A DNA stretch of 64,000 bases from a virus: IMG/VR virus record IMGVR_UViG_3300044490_000250, positions 1 through 64,000 of that record; one strand, 5' to 3'. The translations under genes and the position numbers were made by a program. Shown in pieces: positions 7,367 through 35,020 of this stretch. The notes under the pieces are model-generated. The model saw nothing but the letters and a program-made list of their open reading frames with translations, was not told the origin of the DNA and did no database searches. Each line of letters opens with the position of its first letter. Position 1 is the first letter of the stretch.

Positions 7367-7987
7367 GTGGACTACGGCAAGTTCATCGTCTTCGATGGCG
7401 CGGACGGTGTCGGCAAGACGACGATGGCCCGTCGATTGACGCAGTGGCTCGTCGACGCAGGCGTCCCGACGATCCTGGCCAAAGAGTCGGAGTCGGCGGA
7501 CCCCGCGGCGGCGGCGCTGTACGAAGCGGCCGTGGGGGACGCGGTCGGGGGGCGGCTGGAGCCCGTGGCCCTCCACCTGCTGTTCGCCTCGATGCGGGCG
7601 CAGCACGTAGCGCGGGTGGTACGCCCGGCGCTGACCTCCGGTACGTGGGTGGTGGGAGACCGCCACTCACTCTCGGGTCTCGTCTACGCCGGGTACGGAC
7701 TGGCGTTGCCCCTCCGTAACGTCTGGGATGTCGAGCGGACCGCGTGCGGACCCTTCCGGTCCCCGTCGCTGACCATCGTGTTGTTCCGCCGGCGTGGGAA
7801 GGTGGACGGCGAGCAGTTCTTCGAGCGCAAAGGGGACGACTTCCAGCGCCGAGTGCGGTACGGGTACGCCCAAGAGGCCAAGACGTGGGGGCTCCCGATG
7901 GTGTCGACGGACTGTAGCGAGGACGAGACGTTCGACAAGGTGCTCCTACACGTGAAGCCTTTGCTGAGGGAGGCGGCTGGTGACTGA
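7367..7987 (+). CDS. tmk: Thymidylate (dTMP) kinase, copy 1
   Basis: FIVFDGADGVGKTT, LLFASMRAQH..RPAL, GDRH, FQRRVRYGY. Confidence 0.9.
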   Translation: MDYGKFIVFDGADGVGKTTMARRLTQWLVDAGVPTILAKESESADPAAAALYEAAVGDAVGGRLEPVALHLLFASMRAQHVARVVRPALTSGTWVVGDRHSLSGLVYAGYGLALPLRNVWDVERTACGPFRSPSLTIVLFRRRGKVDGEQFFERKGDDFQRRVRYGYAQEAKTWGLPMVSTDCSEDETFDKVLLHVKPLLREAAGD

Positions 7988-10769
7988 CGTGTGCGCGGAC
8001 TGCCCGCTTCGAGACACAACTCGCGTCGGCCCCAGCGGCCCGCCCCGTGCCGACTTGGCGATTGTCGGCCAGAGTCCCGGCGTGGACGAGGCGCGGCAGG
8101 GGCAGCCGTTTGTGGGCGTCTCTGGGCAGCTGCTGCGGGCCGCGCTGAAGCGGCTCAACGTCGACGCGACGCGGGTGTTCATCGCCAACGCCGTCTCCTG
8201 CGGGCCTCCACCAGACGGCTTCGAGTTCGACCACAAGACGGTCGTGGACTGCGCCCGCCGCCACCTGCACCCGGCGCTGTACGGGGTCCAGCCGAAGGTC
8301 ATCCTGACCCTGGGCAACGAGGCGCATGTTGCTCTCCACCACAGCGGGTCCATGTCGGGGGTCGAGCCGGGAGCGGGCCAGATCAGGTTGTGGGGCAAGG
8401 CGCGGACCGTCCGCGGGCTACACCCGGCGGCGGTGCTGCGTCAGCCTGACTTGTTTGGCGCCTTCTTCGCCTGCCTCGATCGGGCGGTTCAACTGGTGCG
8501 AGGGGAGTTCCGCCCCCTCGTGCTCCCTCGGATGCACGGCACCCTCAGCCGCGATGACTGTGTGGCGAAGCTGCGCCAGCTGCTGCAGCGGGGGGCGCCC
8601 GTAGCGTTTGACATCGAGACGCAGGGTGCATCGAAAACGGAAGCGCTCGACGAGTACCGGGGGGCGCTGGTGGGCGTGGCGTTCTCGGACGGCGACCTCT
8701 CCTTCTTTGTTCCGCTGTGCCACGCGGAGGGTGGGTACGGTGACGACGAGGAGCTGGGTGCTCTGCTCCGGCAGGTCCTCACGGAGCTCCCGACCATCAC
8801 GGCCAACGGCAAGTTCGACTGCCGCTGGATCGAGCGCCACCTGGGCTTCCGCCCCAACCTGACGGACGACGTGCTTCCGATGCACCACCTGTTTGACGAG
8901 ACCCGCCCGCACGGGCTGCAGTACATCAGCCGGTGGCTGCTGAACGCCCCGGACTGGAAGGACGAACTGCAGGAGGCGCTGAACGAGCAGGCACCGGAGC
9001 GCAAGGGCAACCACTACGTGGACCTGCAGTTGCTGGGGCAGTACGCGGCACGGGATGCGTACTGCACTTGGCGCTGCTGCGACACCATGCGTAACCACCC
9101 GCGCTTCTTCTCGTTTCTGCACCACTCGCCGATTCCGCTGTACACCGACCTCACACAGCCTTTGCTGAGTGTCCTACTCGACATCGAGACGGCCGGCCTG
9201 CGCGTGGACCGAGAGGCGCTGGCCCCGACGCACGACGCGATGCAGCGGTACATCCAGCAAGCCGACGCCGCCCTGAACGCGGTGGCGTTTGGCGGCGTCT
9301 CGCTCAGCGCCATCCGCCCGCCGATGATCCACAAGCGTCTTCAGCAGCGGGTGGAGCAGGCTCAGGAGAAGCACCCCGACTGGGGGGTGTCGTGGGATGG
9401 GCGGGGCGCCCCCAAGGTGGTCCCCTCCAGCAACAAGGCGAAGTCGGCCGCGAAGTGGTTGGACAAGACCGTGGAGTACATGGCCCCGGAGAACCTGGGC
9501 GGGACCACGTACATGGGCCTCGGCATCCAGCCCAGCAGCGACGCCCAGATGCGCTGGGTGCTGTACGAGTGGCTGGGCCTGTCGGCTCCCAAGAAGACAG
9601 ACAGCGGGGAGCCGAGTGTCGATCGGTTGAGCCTGGGGGAACTACGGGGTGCGCTGCGCCCCGACCCACTCGGGGACCCGGCCGCCTTCGAACGCGACGA
9701 CGCGGCGGTGCGGGTGATCGAGGCGCTGCAGCAACGTCGCAAGATCGCTAAGCTGGACGGCACCTACGTGCTGCGGTTGCTGAACAAGGGTCTCATAAAA
9801 GACGACGGGCGGGTGCATCCCTACTTTGGGTTCGACCCTGACACCGAAACCGTAGCGCGGACGGGGAGGCTCGCCGCACGAGACCCCAACCTGCAAAACC
9901 AGCCCGAGTCGTTGCGCCCACTGTACGTGCCGGAGCCGGGGTGCAAGTTCATCGAGGCGGACTTCGGGCAGATGGAGCTCCGCTGCTTGGCCTCCATCTC
10001 GCGCGATCGACAACTGCTCGACGCGCTGGCCGCGGAGGATGTACACACCGCGGTCACCAGCCAGATATTCGAGGTGCCCTACGAGCAGGTCGACAAGGAC
10101 CTGCGGAAGACCGGCAAGACCATGAACTTCGCCATCCTCTACGGCATGGGTGCGGGGAAGATGGCCACGACGCTGAACATCACGAAGGAGCGGGCGGAGG
10201 CGCTCATCGCGAAGCACCGGCAGCAGTTCCCTGAGGTGAACCGCCTCATTGACTACACGCACCAGCAGGTCAAGGATGTGGGGTTTGTCGTCAGCCCACT
10301 GGGTCGTGTGCGTCGTCTGCCGGCCGCGTTGTTCCTGAAGGACTTGCCTAAACGCTGGGACGATCTCGATGGGAAGGGAGGGCTGTCTGAATGCCTGCGG
10401 CAAGGGTTTAACTCCCTCGTGCAAGGGCTCGCGGCGGACATCACCAACCTCGCGCTGATCCGTTTGTCGCGAGAGATCACGGGGTATAAGGACTGGTGGC
10501 GGATTGTCAACACCGTTCACGACTCGGTGTTGGTGGAAGTTGAGGCGGGGCGGGCGGAGGAGCTGGCGGAGAAGATGCAGGACGTGCTGACCGCGGAGCC
10601 GTACCCTGGTTTCGGGGTTCCGTTGGTGGTGGACGTGACGATCAACGAGCGGTGGGGCGGGGAGCTGCGGCTGGACAACCTGCTACAAGAAGGGGACGAC
10701 GTTGAGGAAGACGAAGAAGAAGACGAAGGTCTCAGTGATGGAGATGCGGGTCACCGCGAGCCGCATTGA
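7980..10769 (+). CDS. polA: Family A DNA polymerase with N-terminal family-4 uracil-DNA glycosylase domain and 3'-5' exonuclease
   Basis: UDG: CxxC, VGQSPG, PFVG, HPAAVLR. Exo: FDIET, NGKFD, YAARD. Pol: TGRL..PNLQN, ADFGQMELR, KTMNFAILYG, VHDS. Confidence 0.95.
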   Translation: MTDVCADCPLRDTTRVGPSGPPRADLAIVGQSPGVDEARQGQPFVGVSGQLLRAALKRLNVDATRVFIANAVSCGPPPDGFEFDHKTVVDCARRHLHPALYGVQPKVILTLGNEAHVALHHSGSMSGVEPGAGQIRLWGKARTVRGLHPAAVLRQPDLFGAFFACLDRAVQLVRGEFRPLVLPRMHGTLSRDDCVAKLRQLLQRGAPVAFDIETQGASKTEALDEYRGALVGVAFSDGDLSFFVPLCHAEGGYGDDEELGALLRQVLTELPTITANGKFDCRWIERHLGFRPNLTDDVLPMHHLFDETRPHGLQYISRWLLNAPDWKDELQEALNEQAPERKGNHYVDLQLLGQYAARDAYCTWRCCDTMRNHPRFFSFLHHSPIPLYTDLTQPLLSVLLDIETAGLRVDREALAPTHDAMQRYIQQADAALNAVAFGGVSLSAIRPPMIHKRLQQRVEQAQEKHPDWGVSWDGRGAPKVVPSSNKAKSAAKWLDKTVEYMAPENLGGTTYMGLGIQPSSDAQMRWVLYEWLGLSAPKKTDSGEPSVDRLSLGELRGALRPDPLGDPAAFERDDAAVRVIEALQQRRKIAKLDGTYVLRLLNKGLIKDDGRVHPYFGFDPDTETVARTGRLAARDPNLQNQPESLRPLYVPEPGCKFIEADFGQMELRCLASISRDRQLLDALAAEDVHTAVTSQIFEVPYEQVDKDLRKTGKTMNFAILYGMGAGKMATTLNITKERAEALIAKHRQQFPEVNRLIDYTHQQVKDVGFVVSPLGRVRRLPAALFLKDLPKRWDDLDGKGGLSECLRQGFNSLVQGLAADITNLALIRLSREITGYKDWWRIVNTVHDSVLVEVEAGRAEELAEKMQDVLTAEPYPGFGVPLVVDVTINERWGGELRLDNLLQEGDDVEEDEEEDEGLSDGDAGHREPH

Positions 10770-10966: not shown

Positions 10967-11626
10967 ATGCGACGTGGATTCACACTAGTCGAGCTGCTGG
11001 TTGTGATCGCGATTATCGCGATCTTGGCAGCGATCCTGTTTCCCGTGTTCGCGAAGGCGCGCGACAAGGCGAAGGTCCCTTCGTGCGCCAGTAACCTGCA
11101 TCAGGTCGCCCTTGCGATTATGATGTACGTGGAGGACCACGACCGCTTCGGCCCCTATAACGACTGCGGCAACTTCGTCTCAAAGCGCGTCGAAGCCTAC
11201 AGCGCGGCGCGGCAGACCTCAACGCTGTGGTCGTGTCCGTCTGGTGGCTCCTACGCACTCCACCCCTACCGAGGTGGGAAGTGCCGCTCGTCGTCCTGCC
11301 CCAGCGCGCCGCCGTGGAATTACGACTACAACAACTGCGGACGTGTGGTGCACCCCTCTGAGGTAATGCTGATCGCCGACGCGAGCACGAGCATCCCACC
11401 GAAGGCCGAACCTGCCGGGCCCAACTGCTTCATCGATGCGAACGGCAACGGCACTGCCCGACACCTCGGCGTGAACAACATCGCCTACCTGGACGGGCAC
11501 GTTCGTGGTGTCACCCCTGGCGAGATGAGGCGCTCGCTGTCCACCGGAGACGCAGACGCAGACGGTGATGGTCAGCCTGACGGGAAGACCACGGGAGACG
11601 GAGCGTGGTACCGCTGGTACTACTGA
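10967..11626 (+). CDS. Prepilin-type N-terminal cleavage/methylation protein, DUF1559 / H-X9-DG type
   Basis: MRRG^[34 protein letters not shown]; C-terminal [14 protein letters not shown]; GGAGG RBS. Confidence 0.92.
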
Positions 11627-11658: not shown

Positions 11659-11898
11659 ATGAACCAGACACAGAAGGCCGTTATCGTCGGAGCCGTTATC
11701 CTCGTGGCGGTGATCCTTGTCGCCGTTCAGGTGCACCATCGGTCTGCCGCGGCGAAGGCCTTGCAGGAACTCGACTCAGCCCCAACTGCCGATGAGGTTC
11801 AGCAGATGACCGTGGACGAGCGCGCCGAACTGAGCGCGCAGCGTCAAGCGGAAGACGCGTTGGCCGGCCCCCCGCCGGGCTCGGAGAAGGGTAGGTAA
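11659..11898 (+). CDS. Small single-TM protein
   Basis: AAGGAG RBS; N-terminal TM helix. Confidence 0.7.
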   Translation: MNQTQKAVIVGAVILVAVILVAVQVHHRSAAAKALQELDSAPTADEVQQMTVDERAELSAQRQAEDALAGPPPGSEKGR

Positions 11899-11901
11899 CC
11901 G

Positions 11902-12885
11902 GTGCATCAGATCGTCCTGCTCGTTGCGACTCTCGTCTCTGCCGACCCGACGCTCTACGGCTGCTACGAGTCGGTCAACCGGTCCATGTACCCGGACCTT
12001 GCGCGTCTGTACTTTCGCGACCAGTACCGTCACGGGATGCGGAACGGGACAGTGAGCGGCAACACCTGCCACGCCTTCGGGCCGAACCAAGTGATCGGCC
12101 TCGCACGGCAGGTTGACATGATGGTGGAGGAGGGGATCGCGACGCCGGGCGCGCCGATGCTGGCGTTGAGCCTGGACCCCAAAGACATCGCGGCGTCGAA
12201 GGCCAGCGCGCGCTACCCGGCGCGCTGGCCTGAGCTGGTCTGCGGCAACGTGGACGAGCCAAACCCGACGCTGATCGGAGCCGTGCGCGCGAACGGGTCG
12301 GCAGCCTGGGCGGCGGGTGTCCGCAGCGGTACAGCGATCGCGGGCTACAACCTCTACCTGGACCCCGAGAGCGTCAAGTACGACGGACACCTTGCCGACT
12401 GGTTGGATATGTGGATCGTGCTGGCGTCAACGTGGCAACCCGACCTGCGCCGGAAGGCGCTGGAGGCGACTGCCGACCTGTGTGCCTACTGGGCGTACCC
12501 GCGCGAGCCCGACCGCGACCGCTACGTGGCCGGGCTGTGGTGCTGGAAGACGAACCCGAAGGTCTTCTACTACTGGGCGTACACACACGACCCGAACACG
12601 GGCATCCTGCCGAACGGCGTCAAGCAGCACGCGAAGGACGACGAGTTCTCGTTCGTGTATCCGTCGCCGACTGGGCCGGTGAGTACCCCGGCGTGGGAAG
12701 CGGCAGCGGAGGGCATTCGGGACCACGAGTTGCTCGACCGGCTGGCGGCGCAGGGCGGGAGTGAGGCATGGCTGTCAGAGCTGGCCGACAGCCTGCCGAC
12801 CGTCTGCCCCGTTCCGCCGAAGCCGGTGCCGTTCACAGACTGGAAGCGGTTGCGACGTGAATGCCTGAGGAGGCTGCACGGATGA
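11902..12885 (+). CDS. Secreted GH123/DUF4091-like glycoside hydrolase homolog
   Basis: Signal-peptide-like N-terminus; VDEP; FYYWAY; STPAWEAAAEGIRDHELL resembles the DUF4091 S.RWE..REG..D motif. Confidence 0.6.
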   Translation: MHQIVLLVATLVSADPTLYGCYESVNRSMYPDLARLYFRDQYRHGMRNGTVSGNTCHAFGPNQVIGLARQVDMMVEEGIATPGAPMLALSLDPKDIAASKASARYPARWPELVCGNVDEPNPTLIGAVRANGSAAWAAGVRSGTAIAGYNLYLDPESVKYDGHLADWLDMWIVLASTWQPDLRRKALEATADLCAYWAYPREPDRDRYVAGLWCWKTNPKVFYYWAYTHDPNTGILPNGVKQHAKDDEFSFVYPSPTGPVSTPAWEAAAEGIRDHELLDRLAAQGGSEAWLSELADSLPTVCPVPPKPVPFTDWKRLRRECLRRLHG

Positions 12886-13934
12886 TCCACTTTGGCTTCT
12901 ACTCTGCCCTGGGCCGGTTCGCCTACCCGTTCCGGTACCGCGAAGTCTACGGACACATGGCCGAGCTCGGCATGACGACCGGCACCGTGGAGGGCGGCTA
13001 CGCGCAACTGTGCCCGCAGGAGCCGCAAGTCGGCATGGTTCTGCAGGTGGAAGCCATGATGGACGCTGGGCTCGCGCGCCCAGGGGAGCCGATGCTGTTC
13101 ATCGCCGACACGGATGTCATTCGGGCCGCCATGCGGGCGAAGGAGCGCAAACTCAAGGAATCGCTGCCCGTGGCCGAGTCCAACCCGAGGCTGATCTACG
13201 ACGCGATGCAGCGGTCAAACCGGCTCCCCTGGCCGGCGCCGGTGTTGCACATCGCCGACGACCCGGCGCCGGTTGCGGGGATGCTCGATTGGCTCGCCCG
13301 CGAGCGCCTCAAGGCGCACAACTGCCACTTCCAGGTCGGCGGGAACCTCGCCGGGTACTTCCTGATGGAGGCGAAGACCGTCCGTGAGGGCGAGCCTCCG
13401 CAGACGCTCGGAGAGCAACTGGACGTGTGGATCGTCACCGCGAAGACGTGGCAGCAGGACACGGCAAAGAACGCCCGCGCCTTCGGCAAGCGCCTCTGGG
13501 CGCTGCACACCGACGGCTCGACCGGCAGCTACGAGAGGATGCGGTACCTGGGCCTGTGGGCCTGGGCCAACGGGCCGGAGCAAGTCCTGGTGTGGTCATG
13601 GACACACACCGCCGAGACGATGGTGCGGTGCGACGGCTCCCTGTGTGTGCCCAAGGACGACCACCACACCTACGCGATCCCGTCGCCGGATGGCTGGCAC
13701 GACACGCCGGGGCTGCTCGGCTACGCACAGGGCGTCAAGGACTGTCGGGCCATCGAGGCCGCAGAGCAGGCCGGGCTCCCGGCGGTCACGGCCTACTTGG
13801 CCGACCTGCGCCGGTCGGTTCCGTTCGCGTTCCCGCGCGAAGGGCGGCCGCTGCCCGCGCCGGAGGTGCGTGGCGAGGCGGTCGTCGCACAACTGGAGAA
13901 GCTGGCGCGCCAAGGACGGAAGAGAGGGGGCTGA
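12882..13934 (+). CDS. Paralog of the preceding GH123/DUF4091-like protein
   Basis: ATGA overlap; collinear motifs HM.E.GM..GTV, ADDP, LDVWIV, GLWAW, VWSWTH, YAQGVKD. Confidence 0.6.
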   Translation: MIHFGFYSALGRFAYPFRYREVYGHMAELGMTTGTVEGGYAQLCPQEPQVGMVLQVEAMMDAGLARPGEPMLFIADTDVIRAAMRAKERKLKESLPVAESNPRLIYDAMQRSNRLPWPAPVLHIADDPAPVAGMLDWLARERLKAHNCHFQVGGNLAGYFLMEAKTVREGEPPQTLGEQLDVWIVTAKTWQQDTAKNARAFGKRLWALHTDGSTGSYERMRYLGLWAWANGPEQVLVWSWTHTAETMVRCDGSLCVPKDDHHTYAIPSPDGWHDTPGLLGYAQGVKDCRAIEAAEQAGLPAVTAYLADLRRSVPFAFPREGRPLPAPEVRGEAVVAQLEKLARQGRKRGG

Positions 13935-13939
13935 GTCCC

Positions 13940-14929
13940 GTGCATCCCGAGCCGCTGCACACACGGTTCCGGTTGTCGCCCTCCGGCCCGGTTCACATCG
14001 GACACGCGGCGTTGGCGTGGCTGTCTCAACAGGCCGCGCGCGCCACAGGCGGGACCTTCACGATCCGCGCGCAGAGCCTGTGGAACTCGCGCAGCGCCGA
14101 GAACTGGAAGAAGTACCAGAAGTGGGCGAAGGAGAACCTGGAGGCGCTGGTCGCCTGCGGCCTCGGGCCGTCTTCGCGCGAGTCGTTCCTCCTGCACGGC
14201 ATGGACCCCCAGTGGGCTCAGCAGCACATGGACGACCGCGCAACGGTCGACTGGTACTGGGAAGGCTGCAACTACGGCATCCCTGGGTTCAGCTTGGCGA
14301 AGCTGTTCGGCGGGTGGCCACCATTGGGCGATGTAGAAGTGGAGGACGACCGGCAAGCCCAGTACCTCGGCCCGCTGGCGCACAGCAGCGTCTACGCACC
14401 CTACGTGCGGATCGCGCAGATCGTGGGGGACATCACTACGGGGCGGAACTGCCTGCTGCGGGGGCAGGACCACTTCCAGGAGAAGGTCTTCGGGGATTAC
14501 TTCTACGCCCTGATCGCCAAGGAGCACTACCGCCTCGGTGATTTCGACCAGAGCGGGAGGTACGCTCCTGTGCAGTATTTCCTGCCCTTCGTGCGGATCG
14601 ACGACGACGCGAAGGTGAGTAGCTCCGACCAGAACACAGGGCGTGGGTTCTTCCTGCGGGACGTACTGGAGGCGGGCGTCCCGAACGAGGCGCTCCACGC
14701 GATGCTCGGCAAGATCATGTTCGGGTCCGTCGAGGCGGCGCAGATCGCCAACGCCACGTGGTCTACGGAGCCGGTCGCCAAGCCCAAGGACGCGACGGGC
14801 GCTGGAGTGTACCGGTACCCGGTGCAGGCCGGCGCCTGCTACGTGGTGGAGAGCCTCATCGTGCGGCAGCCGCGCATCAGCCGCGCCGAGTGGTTGCGTT
14901 TCCTACAGACCAGAGAGGTGCCGGAGTAA
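13940..14929 (+). CDS. Glutamyl-tRNA synthetase catalytic-domain paralog (GluQ-RS-like, degenerate)
   Basis: TRFRLSPSGPVHIGH, GGTFTIR, LLRGQDH, LPFVRIDDDAKVSSS; about 329 aa, no anticodon-binding domain. Confidence 0.8.
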   Translation: MHPEPLHTRFRLSPSGPVHIGHAALAWLSQQAARATGGTFTIRAQSLWNSRSAENWKKYQKWAKENLEALVACGLGPSSRESFLLHGMDPQWAQQHMDDRATVDWYWEGCNYGIPGFSLAKLFGGWPPLGDVEVEDDRQAQYLGPLAHSSVYAPYVRIAQIVGDITTGRNCLLRGQDHFQEKVFGDYFYALIAKEHYRLGDFDQSGRYAPVQYFLPFVRIDDDAKVSSSDQNTGRGFFLRDVLEAGVPNEALHAMLGKIMFGSVEAAQIANATWSTEPVAKPKDATGAGVYRYPVQAGACYVVESLIVRQPRISRAEWLRFLQTREVPE

Positions 14930-15828
14930 TGGTGCTTCGCACATGCCACTACCCCCCAGGGGACTGGCCGTGGACCACGTGGCCCGCCGGCCGGCTGTTT
15001 CTGCTCCCTCTGTGTGTCACCCCAGGGGGAGGTCGGGTGGACGCGCTGGCCCCGGGGGCGTTCGTCCAGCTGATGCGGCGTGGGCTGGAGCAAGACGCGG
15101 CGGTGGCCGCCCAGCCAGACTTACAGTGCATCAGTCGCAGCGACGTGCTCTGCGTACCCTTAGTGCACGAGGTCCTCTCTCGCTCCAGACGTGATTTACT
15201 GCTGGAGGAGCGTGAGGACTACGACGAGACCTGGGGGCTGGTGACGGAGTTGGGGCCGAAGTTGAGGGGCGTGTTGGTGGGGAACCAGCAAGGCAACTCG
15301 GAGTTGTCGTTCCGCCACCAGTACGGAACGTGGAGCGGGGACGCGGCGGGCAACTGCCGTGCCGTTGCCAAGTTCGTGCTAGAGCTCGGTGGACGGCTGC
15401 GCGAGGCGGGCGTGCAGCCGTTCTTCGGGGTCATCAACTGGGACTTGATCCAGGATGCCTACCTGGGCGGCGAGGTTGTGTTGCGCGCGCTGAACAAGGT
15501 GGGAGCCATCAACATCTGTTTTTGTGGGTACGGGCTCGCGCCCGGCGCCTTCATCAAGCCCCACAAGGACCACCCTCAGGACTGTCGGCGCTGGTTGTGT
15601 GAGCTGGAGGGTAGAGGGTGGAGAGACCCAGCGGATGATGAGGCCTTCCCCACCATGAGTCAGTACCTTCGTCGGGGCCAGTTCTGGTCGGGGCTGTGCG
15701 GCACCGAGGGAGTGCGCGCGGGGAACCTCACGATCCTCTCCCAGTTTGGCTTCCAAGGGTACGCCACAAAGGTGGACGAGCCGGCCCGCGACGATCTGGT
15801 GCGGGAGTTCGGTGAGTGGTGGAAATAG
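14929..15828 (+). CDS. Hypothetical protein (possible alpha/beta barrel)
   Basis: TAATG coupling to the GluRS-like gene; 299 aa. Confidence 0.65.
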   Translation: MVLRTCHYPPGDWPWTTWPAGRLFLLPLCVTPGGGRVDALAPGAFVQLMRRGLEQDAAVAAQPDLQCISRSDVLCVPLVHEVLSRSRRDLLLEEREDYDETWGLVTELGPKLRGVLVGNQQGNSELSFRHQYGTWSGDAAGNCRAVAKFVLELGGRLREAGVQPFFGVINWDLIQDAYLGGEVVLRALNKVGAINICFCGYGLAPGAFIKPHKDHPQDCRRWLCELEGRGWRDPADDEAFPTMSQYLRRGQFWSGLCGTEGVRAGNLTILSQFGFQGYATKVDEPARDDLVREFGEWWK

Positions 15829-24433: not shown

Positions 24434-24516
24434 AGGGGCAGGGCCGGATTCGATACCGGCACTTGGAGTCCCCTTTCAAGAGGGGCGCGTGTCGCTGCTT
24501 TTGGACTACCTGCCCC
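24434..24516 (-). tRNA. Non-canonical tRNA-like element (Ser-UGA-type anticodon loop)
   Basis: GGGGCAGG/CCTGCCCC acceptor, T8A9-like TA, CCCCT-CTTGAAA-GGGGA arm, GCCGG-TATCGAAT-CCGGC T-arm; D-arm aberrant, no CCA. Confidence 0.6.
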
Positions 24517-30828: not shown

Positions 30829-31770
30829 TCAGGACCAGCAAAAGCATCCAGTGCGCGCAGCGTGGGAAGCGGTGTCCACGGCGGCCTGGACTGCGTGGTG
30901 TAGGCTGAACCCCTGAACCAGCTCCGACGTGAACTTGGCCACAAACACGTCGCCGGCTCCACAGGTGTACCGGCCTGGAGTGGCATCCCCCGGCCGCACC
31001 CACACTGGCTGGGGGATCGGGGTGCCGCAGGAGTTGTACACAGCCCCGCTTGCGCCTTGCGTCACCACCACCGCCCCCAACCTGCGGTACCGTGCAAAGG
31101 CGGTCGTCCTGCCGGCGAGAGCGTGCAGCACGTCCACAGGGCGCGCCGGTCTGCGCGCCGACCGGCGGCGTTGGACTCTGGCGACAGCGTCTGCGTACTC
31201 GGCGGCGTTGGGGGTGGCGTAGTCCACGTGGCAAGGCAGGGGGATCAGCGGTGGCGTCTTGATGTCCACCACCACCAGCACCTCCTTCGGGCAGCCCTCA
31301 AGCAGCCAGCCCAGCCGCTCCAGCGCCCCACGGCCGTACCCACTCACCACGAGCGCGGCCACGCCAGTCCAATCAAGCGGCGCCGAGTAGACGGCCTCTC
31401 GGGAGGTGGCGGGGTTGTAGTCCCAGCGCCCAGAGATGACCGGGGTGCCGTCAGGTTCTCGGCGACCCGTGCGTATGCGAAGCAGCGTCTCCCCGGCTCG
31501 CAGGTAACTCCTCCGCTGCACTCCCACAGCCTGTAGAAGCTGATCCAGAGTGTCCCCGTAGGCGTCGGTGCCCAACTCGGCGCAGAGAAACACCGGGTGG
31601 TAGTTGACAGCGAGCACCCGTGCGACGTTGGATGCCATCCCCGGGCTGTACTCTGGAGGCGTGGCCATCTCGTGGAGGATGCAGGGGGCCTCCTGAGCCA
31701 GCCTTTGCGGAGCCCCCATCATCCAAACGTCCAAAGCTACGTCACCCAGCACGACAATCTTCGGTGGCAT
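30829..31770 (-). CDS. PfkB-family sugar kinase, HldE/RfaE (heptose-7-P kinase)-like
   Basis: VVLGDVALD..G..RLAQEAP, PGMASNVA, SGYGRG, TPNAAE, TCGAGD. Confidence 0.8.
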   Translation of the reverse strand: MPPKIVVLGDVALDVWMMGAPQRLAQEAPCILHEMATPPEYSPGMASNVARVLAVNYHPVFLCAELGTDAYGDTLDQLLQAVGVQRRSYLRAGETLLRIRTGRREPDGTPVISGRWDYNPATSREAVYSAPLDWTGVAALVVSGYGRGALERLGWLLEGCPKEVLVVVDIKTPPLIPLPCHVDYATPNAAEYADAVARVQRRRSARRPARPVDVLHALAGRTTAFARYRRLGAVVVTQGASGAVYNSCGTPIPQPVWVRPGDATPGRYTCGAGDVFVAKFTSELVQGFSLHHAVQAAVDTASHAARTGCFCWS

Positions 31771-31825
31771 CAGTGAGCGCCTCCCGTTTCTGAGACATCT
31801 ACGAACCGCGTGTTGAGCAGCGGGT

Positions 31826-32677
31826 CTACAGTCGGGCACCCTGCTCGTCGTAGTTCATCAGCAGCAGCTCCGTGCGGCGCGCCTCCGAGGGCTGGTGAGA
31901 GCGACTGGCGCAGAACACGTCACGCTCGACACGCCTCCAGCCGGCGTAGAGTGTGTCCACCAAAGGGCAGATGTAGTTGCTGACCATGACGCGAGCCTGA
32001 CACTCGTTCAGCGCAGCGGCGAGCCGACGATCGTCAGCCTCAACCCACGGGTATCGGTAGTACGGGTTCGTGTCGGAGTCGCGGTAGACGGTTGTGGTGT
32101 ACGGGCTGTCCACGTAGAATAGGGTGTCGCGGTGGTCGTACTTGGTGATGATCTTCGCGAAGTCCAGATTCTCGAAGAGCACCTCTTGGATGCGTTGACT
32201 GACCGCCGCGATCCTGGCTGTCGCGCTACGAAACGCCCGCGGGGCCCAGCTCTTCTGGTCCAGGTCCGGGTGGTGGTGGAACCCCGCGTTGTCCTTGGCG
32301 ATCCAGGAGCTAAACGAGGTTCGTAACAGGTAGAAGAACCGAACCGCGCGCTCCATGTCGCTCAGTTGGCGCCAGTCGTCTGGGGTGTAGAGGTACTGAC
32401 GCCGCCACTGCCGGAAACGGTTCCGGGAGTAGGGCAGCCGGTTGAGGTGCGAGATCAGCTCTTCCGGCCGGAGGCGCACCACTTCCCAGAGGTTGATGAG
32501 GCTGTCATCCAGGTCGTTGACCACCTCACGCACCTCACTGTTGTAGGGCCGGGCCAGCAGGATACCGCAGGCACCGGCAAACGGCTCGACGTACATTCGA
32601 TAATCTGTGGGCAGATGCGGGAGAATCCACCGAGCGTGGCTGGCCTTCCCACCCACCCAGGCAAACGGGGGTCTCAC
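31826..32677 (-). CDS. dam: Dam-type (D12 class) DNA adenine methyltransferase
   Basis: WVGGK, YVEPFAG, NDLD..LIN, FYVDSPY, ELLLMNY. Confidence 0.88.
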   Translation of the reverse strand: MRPPFAWVGGKASHARWILPHLPTDYRMYVEPFAGACGILLARPYNSEVREVVNDLDDSLINLWEVVRLRPEELISHLNRLPYSRNRFRQWRRQYLYTPDDWRQLSDMERAVRFFYLLRTSFSSWIAKDNAGFHHHPDLDQKSWAPRAFRSATARIAAVSQRIQEVLFENLDFAKIITKYDHRDTLFYVDSPYTTTVYRDSDTNPYYRYPWVEADDRRLAAALNECQARVMVSNYICPLVDTLYAGWRRVERDVFCASRSHQPSEARRTELLLMNYDEQGARL

Positions 32678-33699
32678 AGAGCAAGCACCTCTCGGTAGAG
32701 ATCAACGCACGCCGCCGCAGCGTCATCCCACCTGTAGAGGCGGGCCCGACGCGCCACGTCGAAGTTGCGGAGCTGGCAGCTCTCGGGCTGCCAAGTCATC
32801 ATCTGCGCCATCCCGGTAATGACCGCGGCGGGGTCGAACGGGTTGGCGTACTCCGCCGCCGTACCGAAGACTTCCCGCTCCGACGCTTGGTTTCCTACCA
32901 GGACGGGCAGCCCCACCGTCATCATCTCCAGCGCGGCCAGCCCGGGGGTCTCGTAAAGGCTGACCTGCCAGCCGAAGCGCGCGGAGGCCATCGCCGCCGC
33001 CAGACAGGCCCGGTCCAGGATGGGGGGCCAGAACGAAACGCGCCCTTGACGCTCACGACGAGCGTGGCCGATCACCACCCCTTTGCACTTGAGCTCGTCG
33101 CACGCCTCAACGAAGAGCCACCCGTTCTTGCGGTCTTCGAAGCGGCCCACGTAGAGCCACGCGCCCTGCAGGTCCTCCTTCAGCTGAGGGTCCAACGGCG
33201 CCTGCGCCATGCCAAACAGGTCCTCCACGGCGTTGTACTGCACCCGCCACGGAGGACAGGCACCCTCAAGCATCTGAGCGATGACGCCCTGCTCGGTGTA
33301 GCTGTTCGGCAGCGCGCCGGCGCACGCCCGTAGGAGCTGCGCCAAGTGCCTCTCGTGCCGCATCCCCTCCTCCGTCCCCTCAAGGTACGCCCGCTCCGCA
33401 GAAACCCCAGCACGCTGCTTCTGGTACGTCGCGAAGGCGTGCATGGGCCAGTAGATGGTGCTCAGCACAAACTGCTTGCGGTGTTCCTCGCACCAGTCCA
33501 CCACCTGCTGCTCCGCGCGACTGCTCGCGAAGCGCACAAGGTGGATAATGTCAGCGTCGACCGCCTCGGCGATGTCCGCAACTTCGACGTGGCTCACACA
33601 CTGCACGGCGGGGTGCTTCGCCACGGCGCTCACTAGCTGCCGCGCGACCTGTTGGCTTCCACCTAAGGCCCCCGTCGCGCCTACCATGACCACCTTCAT
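32674..33699 (-). CDS. GT4-family glycosyltransferase
   Basis: LSTIYW, LPNS..E, VGRFEDRKN, SLYETPGLAALE. Confidence 0.85.
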   Translation of the reverse strand: MKVVMVGATGALGGSQQVARQLVSAVAKHPAVQCVSHVEVADIAEAVDADIIHLVRFASSRAEQQVVDWCEEHRKQFVLSTIYWPMHAFATYQKQRAGVSAERAYLEGTEEGMRHERHLAQLLRACAGALPNSYTEQGVIAQMLEGACPPWRVQYNAVEDLFGMAQAPLDPQLKEDLQGAWLYVGRFEDRKNGWLFVEACDELKCKGVVIGHARRERQGRVSFWPPILDRACLAAAMASARFGWQVSLYETPGLAALEMMTVGLPVLVGNQASEREVFGTAAEYANPFDPAAVITGMAQMMTWQPESCQLRNFDVARRARLYRWDDAAAACVDLYREVLAL

Positions 33700-34748
33700 A
33701 GCACATCGTCTCCTCTGATTCTCGCAAGGATGCGGGGGGAGTCGCTCCGCACAATCTGTAGATGAGACAGCACGTAGTCCAGCACCTTCAACCGCTGCCA
33801 GGACATCCCGGGGTCCTGCTCCTCCCTGGTCTTACCATAGAACGTTGAGCCGTAGACGAGGGTCTCCTGAGCGTAGAACCACGCCTCCAGCGCGACGTTG
33901 GAGCAGAGCGTCAGCACCTTGATGTGCGGCAGAGACAGGATGCTGTGGATGTTGAGGTCGGCCGCCAGACGACGCGAGTACCCGACAGCCACCGCAGGAC
34001 TCGGGCACCGAGGGTGAGGCTTGAACCACGCACCCTCCCGCTCAGCCGCGCTCCGCAGGTCAAGCAACACCTGCTCGACGTTGGGCTGCACGTAGAGCGC
34101 GTTGTCCCACTCCACCTGCCCGAACCAGACTGTGTCCCCCGGCTCGACCACCGTTTCTCGCAGGGCCACAAGCCGCTGGTGCCCTGGCTTGGTCTGCTGG
34201 AGGCGGCGCCACCACCGCCCGTAGTCACGCACCCGCTGGGTGTGTGGCTCCCAAGAGGCAAACCACTCCGCGCGGTCGAGCGACGCCCCCAACACGTAGT
34301 AGGGCACGTCCCGCGTGATGATGACCGGCACGTCCCCGTCTTGTGAGGGGAAGAGCCCGTTCTCCAGGAAGGCGACAGGGACGCCCGCCTCCGCGGCGGC
34401 GAGCCTTGCACTCCAACTCACCACTTCGTGCGTCGCCCAGATCAGAACCACATCTGGCCGGCTCTCCTCCAGGCGTTGACGCCAGCAGTTCAAGTACCAC
34501 TGCGCGCGCCGCTCCCACCACGGCACAGAGTTGGGGGCGTCACGGTACCGCGAGTAGCGGTGGTTCGCCGCCCACAGCATGTACTGCACCGCACACTGCG
34601 TCAGCGGCTCGATGTCGCCCGCTGCCCCAGAGACAGGCGGCACGTCGGCCCACACCTCCACTGCCTCCCCTTCCCGCATCAGCGACTGCGCCAGGGGGGC
34701 CATGACGTGCTTCTCGATGTCGTAGTTCTCAGGGACCAGCGCGATCAT
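33696..34748 (-). CDS. KpsS/KpsC-like capsule glycosyltransferase (beta-Kdo transferase-like)
   Basis: FLENGLFP, FGQVEWD, FKPHP, TLCSNVALEAW, YGSTFYG. Confidence 0.75.
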   Translation of the reverse strand: MIALVPENYDIEKHVMAPLAQSLMREGEAVEVWADVPPVSGAAGDIEPLTQCAVQYMLWAANHRYSRYRDAPNSVPWWERRAQWYLNCWRQRLEESRPDVVLIWATHEVVSWSARLAAAEAGVPVAFLENGLFPSQDGDVPVIITRDVPYYVLGASLDRAEWFASWEPHTQRVRDYGRWWRRLQQTKPGHQRLVALRETVVEPGDTVWFGQVEWDNALYVQPNVEQVLLDLRSAAEREGAWFKPHPRCPSPAVAVGYSRRLAADLNIHSILSLPHIKVLTLCSNVALEAWFYAQETLVYGSTFYGKTREEQDPGMSWQRLKVLDYVLSHLQIVRSDSPRILARIRGDDVL

Positions 34749-35020
34749 CGGACGACCTTGGCGAGGTAGTGGCCACACTCAGGGGCCACGGCCTCTTCCA
34801 GCCACTCCTGCATACTCTCAGCGAGCGTCCCCCAGTCAACCGGCTGCGGCAGCGCCTCAGCGAGGTCCTGCAGCATCTGGGTGAGCTGGTCCGCGACGGT
34901 GTGGTAGTCCACACACTTAGGCTGAAGGATGCACGTGGCACAAGCGGGGACCCCAGGCTGCGCTGGCAGCGGGTCGCCCTGGTACGTGTTGGGCAGCGCC
35001 CTTTCGAGTTGGAGATACAC
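34745..35020 (-). CDS. Small Cys-rich protein
   Basis: CATCILQPKC (Cx2Cx5C). Confidence 0.55.
   Translation of the reverse strand: MYLQLERALPNTYQGDPLPAQPGVPACATCILQPKCVDYHTVADQLTQMLQDLAEALPQPVDWGTLAESMQEWLEEAVAPECGHYLAKVVR

Follow-up and report, generated by a model that had tools for sequence, protein, structure and literature searches.

A phage-borne, undescribed clade of proteins derived from the glutamyl-tRNA synthetase core and its possible role as a non-translational glutamate transferase

The stretch of DNA considered here, a window of 64,000 nucleotides covering positions 1 to 64,000 of the IMG/VR virus record IMGVR_UViG_3300044490_000250 (79,558 bp in full, with an estimated completeness of 73%), contains a gene for a 329-residue protein that resembles the catalytic half of glutamyl-tRNA synthetase (GluRS) and is the subject of this analysis. 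The plus strand of the window encodes a helicase, DnaB, a primase zinc-finger protein, a dTMP kinase, a fusion of uracil-DNA glycosylase (UDG) with DNA polymerase A (PolA), a RecA-like protein and a Toprim protein, and the minus strand encodes a terminase, a portal, a tape measure and a virion protein. The presence of the terminase, portal, tape measure and replication module, together with the provenance of the record, confirms the phage origin of the locus. The window represents a tailed phage, and the initial annotation of this DNA, which was made from the sequence and described a phage-encoded protein of about 329 residues, was right on both counts.

The gene itself (Table 1) is confirmed as real by a GTG start with a ribosome-binding-site-like sequence, a GC content of 0.89 at third codon positions and homologs that are 33-48% identical to its product. 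The GC content by codon position (0.64/0.46/0.89) follows the same pattern in the other genes of the window, which has 65% GC overall, and the predicted N-terminus, (M)HPEPLHTRFR, agrees with the N-termini of the homologs. The stop of the upstream gene at 13934 leaves a 5-nt gap before the GTG, and the downstream ATG at 14929 shares one base with the TAA stop (TAATG); this spacing fits the translational coupling that had been proposed. The motif strings quoted in the initial annotation were all found at their expected coordinates within the gene.

Table 1. Coordinates of the GluRS-like gene, its motifs, its neighbours and related features in the window and in other loci
Feature	Sequence or locus	Coordinates	Strand	Remarks
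RBS-like sequence GGAAGAGAGGGGG	window	13917-13929	+	within the 3' end of the upstream gene, about 10 nt before the GTG; read directly from the sequence
GluRS-core paralog gene	window	13940-14929	+	329 aa; GTG start; TAA stop at 14927-14929; frame intact
TRFRLSPSG (residues 8-16)	window	13961-13987	+	RFRLSPSG corresponds to GluRS RFAPSPTG
HIGH (H19-H22)	window	13994-14005	+	invariant in 13 of 13 close homologs
GGTFTIRAQSL	window	14048-14080	+	IRAQSL (Q45) aligned to GluRS RIEDTD
GGWP (G124-x-W126-P127)	window	14309-14320	+	family-specific motif in the remodelled connective-peptide/acceptor-binding insertion
VGD...TGRN...RGQDH (residues 162-178)	window	14423-14473	+	VGD (G163, D164) corresponds to GluRS VDD; carries D164 and R174 of the Glu triad
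RGQDH (R174-D177-H)	window	14459-14473	+	corresponds to GluRS RGEDH
KVSSS (K225-S229)	window	14612-14626	+	aligned to GluRS KLSKR (KMSKS loop); both catalytic basic residues are Ser
Prepilin-type N-methylation motif and DUF1559 protein	window	10967-11626	+	cassette partner
Small predicted transmembrane peptide	window	11659-11898	+	not conserved in other loci (tblastn)
GH123-like paralog 1	window	11902-12885	+	N-terminal signal-peptide-like segment; VDEP motif
GH123-like paralog 2	window	12861-13934	+	no signal peptide, no DE pair; directly upstream of the GluRS-like gene
299-aa beta/alpha (TIM-barrel-like) protein	window	14929-15828	+	its homologs accompany the GluRS-like gene in L003, L004 and L013
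GH123-like proteins	window	11902-13934		
GH123-like proteins	L004	6074-9698		
GH123-like proteins	L012	6170-7987		
GH123-like proteins	L013	6166-7971		
Cassette and flanking head genes	L012	46-10138		
GNAT gene	L013	8945-9493		
PfkB-family sugar kinase, Dam-type methyltransferase, two GT4 genes	window	30829-34778	-	in a row
dTMP kinase	window	7367-7987	+	
UDG-PolA fusion	window	7980-10769	+	929 aa
EF-Ts-like protein, then truncated GluRS	L001	9201-10888		IMG/VR, 100 kb
Truncated GluRS	L001	9995-10888		297 aa
tRNA-Leu(CAA)	L011	9285-9361	-	genome 73285-73361, beyond the window

Comparisons with sequence profiles and structures, in which the matches are far better than expected by chance, identify the protein as a GluRS-derived core equivalent to domains 1-3, that is, a Rossmann fold, a remodelled insertion and a stem-contact fold. 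The Pfam model tRNA-synt_1c (PF00749) matches residues 6-56 only, with 30 bits against a cut-off of 23.4 (E 3e-7), and also matches 28 of the 38 members of the wider family discussed below. In hhalign, a 13-sequence family alignment scores 98.9% against an alignment of bacterial GluRS (E 1e-17, 287 columns) and 97.8% against one of GluQRS. All the top Foldseek matches to an AlphaFold2 (AF2) model of the protein, which has a predicted local distance difference test (pLDDT) value of 82.7 and a predicted template modelling (pTM) score of 0.84, are bacterial GluRS. VIA-align places residues 1-326 of the model on residues 1 to about 325 of GluRS with Z scores of 18-19 (best 18.9; about 240 residues, root-mean-square deviation about 3.3 Å), over a span comprising the Rossmann domain, the insertion and the stem-contact fold; the Z scores against GlnRS and GluQRS are 16.8 and 16.1, respectively. 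The GluRS-derived Rossmann HIGH fold that had been recognized by eye is thus upheld both by the Pfam match, which is above the cut-off within the N-terminal 50 residues, and by the structural superposition. So are the reported absence of an anticodon-binding C-terminal domain, the model of the 329-residue protein aligning only up to about residue 325 of GluRS, and that of the KMSKS lysines. No fused or longer relatives were found, which is weak evidence.

The active-site residues were mapped by alignment to E. coli GltX, the GluRS of T. elongatus and P. aeruginosa and the M. thermautotrophicus GluRS 3aii, and conservation was counted in 13 close homologs (33-48% identical) and in the wider family (n=38). 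Profile alignment to E. coli GltX yields the same motif correspondences as the initial annotation, and a HMMER alignment to P. aeruginosa GluRS agrees with them. Three strictly conserved residues form the network by which GluRS recognizes glutamate, namely Arg5, Arg205 and Asp195 in T. thermophilus, equivalent to Arg100, Arg292 and Asp282 in M. thermautotrophicus, and Arg5/Arg100 contacts the side-chain carboxylate of the substrate (PMC2978374). According to the 3aii and GltX alignments, the equivalents of Arg5, Asp195 and Arg205 in the phage protein are R9, D164 and R174. Residues R9, H19, H22, R174 and D177 are present in all 13 close homologs, so that HIGH and RGxDH are indeed retained, and position 164 is Asp or Glu in every one of them; in the wider family, R9 is found in 34/38 members, H19 in 29/38, H22 in 32/38, R174 in 29/38 and an acidic residue at position 164 in 38/38. 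As judged from these alignments, the predicted ATP-site and glutamate-site residues are retained, with the exception of the KMSKS lysines. Because the R9/D164/R174 triad is kept in 13 of the 13 close homologs, glutamate is most likely the substrate, and the earlier suggestion of a new amino acid is disfavoured on the same grounds.

Around this conserved pocket the family differs from GluRS at several positions. Position 45, which corresponds to the Glu of the GluRS RIEDTD motif (Glu41), is Gln in seven, Glu in five and Asp in one of the close subfamily; in the KMSKS-aligned loop, position 228 is Ser in ten and Ala in three, and position 229 is Ser in all 13. Family-specific invariants comprise R11, at a position where GluRS carries Ala, the G124-x-W126-P127 motif (with W126 and P127 each present in 37 of the 38 family members), H153-P-Y, R169-N170, Q212 and W318. 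A conserved Cys cluster was not found in the family, in which the only frequent Cys is C171 in the motif RNC, and the zinc module of GluRS and GluQRS is therefore gone; moreover, the insertion does not align with the GluQRS insertion in hhalign. Thus, compared with the catalytic half of bacterial GluRS (PDB 2ja2, 1j09 and 8i9i), the phage protein shares the fold, the HIGH motif, the Arg/Asp/Arg glutamate triad, RGxDH and the helices of the stem-contact fold, but lacks anticodon domains 4-5, reads KVSSS for KLSKR and RAQSL for RIEDTD, has an insertion with the invariant GxWP in place of the connective-peptide/zinc module, carries the additional invariants R11, R169 and N170, and is encoded among phage genes and glycan- and pilin-related genes.

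The family is rare. A word-indexed search yielded 12 relatives. When 1.84 billion representatives were searched exhaustively with a profile, 21 scored E<1e-30 and 36 scored E<1e-10, with lengths of about 270-390 aa throughout; the matches that follow are GluQRS and GluRS proteins, aligned in their N-terminal block only. The sampled members of the family, which comprises about 40 representatives, come from metagenome assemblies, form mostly singleton clusters and are unnamed or annotated as 'hypothetical protein'. In a maximum-likelihood tree of 113 rows, obtained by a quick IQ-TREE search and rooted on E. coli GlnRS, the family forms one clade of 42 rows with a support of 99 in the Shimodaira-Hasegawa-like approximate likelihood ratio test (SH-aLRT). 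This clade is sister (95) to other short GluRS-like clades of the type 'NTRF[RN]PT...HxGH' with an x-L-S-K-S/T loop, and the family and its sister clades together fall outside a group (91) that unites GluRS, truncated phage GluRS and GluQRS. The family is accordingly a separate lineage, not nested among intact cellular enzymes. The GluRS-like protein, its neighbours and the distant family members have no match in PHROGs, and the literature searched contained no paper on this family or on DUF1559 cassettes of phages. Neither PHROGs nor NCBIfam nor any full-length Pfam model covers the family, which is a phage-borne, undescribed clade. At least two of the sister clades, with proteins of 230-300 aa (e.g., P0051, P0056, P0068 and P0090), match PHROGs weakly (phrog_35649), and no description of the NTRF[RN]PT clades was found in the literature searched.

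The only match to the family alignment in IMG/VR outside the lineage of the window, a 297-aa protein encoded directly after an EF-Ts-like protein in L001 and matching phrog_35649, is a different thing, namely an ordinary truncated GluRS. It is likewise phage-encoded, about 300 aa long and built on a GluRS catalytic core, but it keeps APSPTG, RIDDTD and KLSKR and clusters with genuine GluRS. Among species-representative genomes, no family member was detected with the sequence patterns used, PVC genomes not having been searched directly; the sole match of the scan was the N-terminus of an ordinary GluRS/GluQRS-type protein in Xanthobacter (L010). A scan of viral contigs with a subclade of the family that lacks HIGH gave no match.

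The ratio of nonsynonymous to synonymous substitution rates (dN/dS) is 0.17 between L003 and L004, the closest pair with DNA available (67% amino acid identity), other pairs being synonymously saturated so that their ratios mean little. The homologs contain no stops and have lengths of 321-345 aa. The gene is under purifying selection and is not decaying: a dN/dS near 1, such as a decaying capture would produce, is not seen, and motif residues are invariant among the close homologs. These results bear on the most conservative explanation, according to which the protein is a working GluRS that serves translation, or a captured host gltX or gluQ in decay. The sole Pfam match, to tRNA-synt_1c at residues 6-56, agrees with such an origin, but the protein has neither an anticodon-binding domain nor KMSKS, its scores with the NCBIfam GluRS equivalogs are far below the cut-offs (16.5 against 289.95 bits for TIGR00464, gltX_bact, and 22.2 against 401.75 for TIGR00463, gltX_arch), it belongs to a separate deep clade with intact frames and conserved lengths in all homologs, and no tRNA-Glu was found in the phage record. 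This explanation is therefore very improbable. The tRNA-like RNAs of the phage to which the initial annotation referred could not be substantiated either: no tRNA or tRNA-like RNA was detected within the 64-kb window, positions 24434-24516 included, by ARAGORN or by Rfam at gathering thresholds, and tRNA-Leu(CAA), located elsewhere in the genome, is the sole tRNA found in the phage record.

A related system is GluQRS (YadB; PDB 4a91 and 1nzj), another truncated GluRS paralog, which likewise has about 300 aa and no anticodon domain, with which the phage protein shares the N-terminal motif block and which sets the precedent for a GluRS core that moves glutamate to a cis-diol away from the tRNA 3' end. 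By analogy, the phage protein could attach glutamate to a host (or phage) tRNA, at a modified base or elsewhere than the 3' end, and so retune translation during infection. The matching architecture of a catalytic core and stem-contact fold, the retained glutamate triad and the existence of phages with truncated GluRS genes beside translation genes, as in L001, speak for this possibility, as does the fact that the best NCBIfam matches are GluQRS models, albeit over the N-terminal 50 residues only and at 30.3 against a cut-off of 250 bits (TIGR03838) and 26.1 against 276.7 (NF004315). Nevertheless, we consider it unlikely. The family is placed outside the GluQRS clade and has neither the KLSKQ-type loop with its lysine nor the zinc-binding Cys cluster that is present in the insertion domain of GluQRS, as known from the YadB structures. 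The conserved partners of the GluRS-like gene are pilin and sugar-enzyme-like proteins, not translation genes, and differ from the gene neighbourhood of GluQRS. Furthermore, the family is mildly acidic, with a median isoelectric point of about 6 against 8.5 for the basic GluQRS-like set, although GluRS cores are mildly acidic as well and net charge is not decisive as a proxy for tRNA binding. TGT/DpdA and QueC were not found in the 79.6-kb, 73% complete record, which bears on this possibility only indirectly; the idea of a queuosine or 7-deazaguanine modification of DNA was dropped for the same reason.

Contextual information comes from a neighbourhood survey of five phage or metagenome contigs and one fragment, retrieved by family-alignment and deep-subclade scans, in which a cassette around the GluRS-like gene is conserved in the window, L003, L004, L006, L012 and L013. 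In the window, L003 and L004, the order, as determined with tblastn, is a DUF1559 prepilin, two or three paralogs of about 320-390 aa, then the GluRS-like gene and finally the gene for the 299-aa protein; L006 has the GluRS-like gene immediately after the prepilin, where the contig ends. L012 and L013 are viral contigs from the deep-subclade scans, and their GluRS-like proteins are only 25-30% identical to that of the window. The former carries a prepilin, a protein of 605 aa with a signal peptide and a faint match to the GH123 N-domain, the GluRS-like gene and a gene for a 406-aa protein, and the latter a prepilin, a 601-aa homolog of the 605-aa protein, the GluRS-like gene, a GNAT gene that directly follows and overlaps its end (at this one locus) and, further on, a homolog of the downstream protein of the window. 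Given that the cassette lies between an HK97-type capsid gene and head-tail connector genes in L012 and within the replication module in the window, it moves as a unit.

The initial annotation had described the coupled neighbours as glycosidase-like. For the upstream paralogs, no Pfam match (PF13320, GH123_cat) was obtained, and their resemblance to GH123_cat clusters in the Atlas (feature score 0.97, structure TM 0.76) is a lead and not family membership; the downstream protein is a beta/alpha barrel by an Atlas lead, with weak and mixed Foldseek matches to TIM barrels for an AF2 model of pLDDT 63.5. The description can be maintained, at this level, for the upstream paralogs. The signal-peptide-bearing copy of each cassette has a DEP/DEW motif, and the paralog or paralogs directly upstream of the GluRS-like gene have neither, which suggests one exported hydrolase and cytoplasmic copies that may be non-hydrolytic. 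Flanking genes are often glycan-related: GT4 and GT9 glycosyltransferases before the cassette of L004, with an S-adenosylmethionine-dependent methyltransferase inside it and an Amidase_3 protein after it; a RmlD-like reductase near the cassette of L003; elsewhere in the window, two GT4 glycosyltransferases occur together with a PfkB-family sugar kinase and a Dam-type N6-adenine methyltransferase. The DUF1559 domain is reported to be exclusive to the Planctomycetes-Verrucomicrobia-Chlamydiae (PVC) superphylum or to Planctomycetes (PMC4807772, PMC10632474), and its presence in the cassette points to a host from the PVC lineage.

We propose, with a probability of roughly 0.4, that the GluRS-like protein is a non-translational glutamate-adenylating transferase that acts on a glycoconjugate or another acceptor distinct from the tRNA 3' end. 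Such an enzyme would still bind ATP, along with L-glutamate or a near acidic analogue of it, and form the acyl-adenylate, with the Ser-rich loop taking over the phosphate-binding role of KMSKS and R11 as a candidate compensating basic residue, and would then pass the glutamyl group to a hydroxyl or an amine of the non-tRNA-3' acceptor. The likeliest acceptor would be a sugar or glycoconjugate attached to the DUF1559 pseudopilin or to the cell surface of a PVC-superphylum host, one that the co-encoded TIM-barrel enzymes also handle, and the chemistry would be of the GluQRS kind (an ester to a cis-diol) or of the MshC kind (an amide to an amino sugar). Enzymes of the GluRS lineage transfer glutamate to the ribose 2'-OH, GluQRS transfers it to the cyclopentenediol of queuosine, and MshC is a class I paralog that acylates an amino sugar; in light of these precedents, a sugar hydroxyl or amine is the chemically nearest alternative acceptor, and a sugar also fits the gene neighbourhood. 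Of the adenylating transferase with a new amino acid or acceptor that had been envisaged initially, the non-translational role and the new acceptor are consistent with all that we have seen, and the new amino acid is the part that is disfavoured.

The proposed replacement of KMSKS by a Ser-rich loop is plausible because, in M. tuberculosis PanC, a HIGH-type adenylate-forming enzyme, Ser196, Ser197 and Arg198 contact ATP; PanC resembles the phage family in its HxGH motif and its Ser-Ser loop positioned on the ATP phosphates in place of KMSKS, and passes its acyl-adenylate to an amine, but it is related at the superfamily level only and has an Arg after the Ser pair that the phage family lacks (PMC5772511). 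The likeness raises the alternative of a PanC-like carboxylate-adenylating ligase, in which the Arg pair would bind a sugar acid (a uronic acid or one of the Kdo type) or another acidic metabolite to be joined to an amine. Besides the loop, the new invariants R11, R169 and N170 beside the pocket and the GT9, PfkB kinase and other sugar-pathway genes in the phage and related contigs are compatible with such a ligase; however, the protein keeps the whole glutamate triad and the GluRS-type pocket residues around it, glutamate is the simplest reading, and we regard a ligase of this kind as quite improbable. A more specific form of the glutamate-transferase proposal, in which the phage GluRS core would make Glu-AMP by means of the Ser-rich loop and transfer glutamate to a glycan, to an amino sugar or to the DUF1559 pseudopilin itself, as one step in a cassette that remodels the surface, the pili or the secretion apparatus of PVC-superphylum (Planctomycetes-type) hosts, is somewhat more doubtful than the general one.

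Several considerations weigh against a glutamate-adenylating transferase. The second lysine of KMSKS plays an important part in adenylate formation by class I synthetases; throughout the family its place is taken by Ser or Ala, with R11 being only a candidate for compensation. GluRS requires tRNA for the activation of glutamate, and the acceptor may after all be a tRNA. Gene neighbourhood is the sole source of the link to glycans, and the assignments of the neighbours to glycoside hydrolase-like proteins are themselves leads (from the Atlas and from weak Foldseek matches to a model with a pLDDT of 63) and not family memberships; moreover, some of the cassette partners are exported, whereas the GluRS-like protein has no signal peptide. 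Finally, about a quarter of the wider family has lost HIGH and/or R174, and at least these members may not adenylate, which increases the likelihood of an ancestral role in binding and not in catalysis.

This last point leads to the alternative of a pseudoenzyme, that is, a module that binds glutamate, ATP or a nucleotide, or a scaffolding subunit, which would act, for example, as a chaperone or regulator of the GH123-like and TIM-barrel proteins or of the prepilin without carrying out any adenylation. Whole subclades of the wider family have neither HIGH (which reads T-I-G-N) nor the Arg of RGxD and still keep GxWP, HPY, G175 and W318, a pattern suggesting that the core function need not be catalysis; the family-wide loss of both KMSKS basic residues and the tight linkage of the GluRS-like gene to its partner proteins are compatible with this possibility as well. 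On the other hand, the invariance of all canonical ATP- and glutamate-contacting positions other than the KMSKS lysines, among proteins that are just 33-48% identical, is difficult to account for unless substrates are bound in a catalytic geometry, and Ser-rich loops can stand in for KMSKS in related enzymes (PMC5772511). On balance, we consider a pseudoenzyme rather unlikely and retain the glutamate-adenylating transferase as the preferred reading.

With respect to the kind of chemistry that such a transferase might perform, MshC, the Cys:GlcN-Ins ligase of mycothiol synthesis, offers a functional analogy only, being a class I paralog that converts an amino acid to an adenylate and transfers it to an amino sugar. 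The MshC pathway includes a GT4 glycosyltransferase and a GNAT, of which the GT4 neighbour in L004 and the GNAT neighbour in L013 are reminiscent; however, MshC derives from CysRS, a different synthetase subfamily, and, unlike the phage family, keeps KMSKS. The gene order of L013, a putative ligase followed by a GNAT, recalls that of MshC and MshD (ligase, then N-acetylase) in mycothiol synthesis.

To our knowledge, paralogs of aminoacyl-tRNA synthetases with non-translational jobs, such as GluQRS, MshC, EpmA/PoxA and the cyclodipeptide synthases, are few, and each has revealed new chemistry. The family described here branched off separately from the GluRS core and is maintained by selection, with one class-defining motif rewritten and the acceptor-binding module replaced, and its conserved association with a DUF1559 prepilin, GH123-like and TIM-barrel proteins points to the cell envelope of Planctomycetes-type bacteria, whose phage biology and DUF1559 expansion are both poorly understood. 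Should the acceptor prove not to be an RNA, this would be the first GluRS paralog of that kind and a new branch of enzymology derived from aminoacyl-tRNA synthetases, and would offer a first way into the function of the huge DUF1559 family; should the protein instead be a pseudoenzyme, it would represent a clear case of the recruitment of a synthetase core by phages as a binding module.

The stretch of DNA that carries the gene recurs in seven DNA runs from lake-water metagenomes, with no RNA run listed. Elsewhere in the replication module of the window, the UDG-PolA fusion combines, in a single protein, an N-terminal family-4-type UDG domain, a 3'-5' exonuclease and DNA polymerase A, and the dTMP kinase gene lies just upstream of it.

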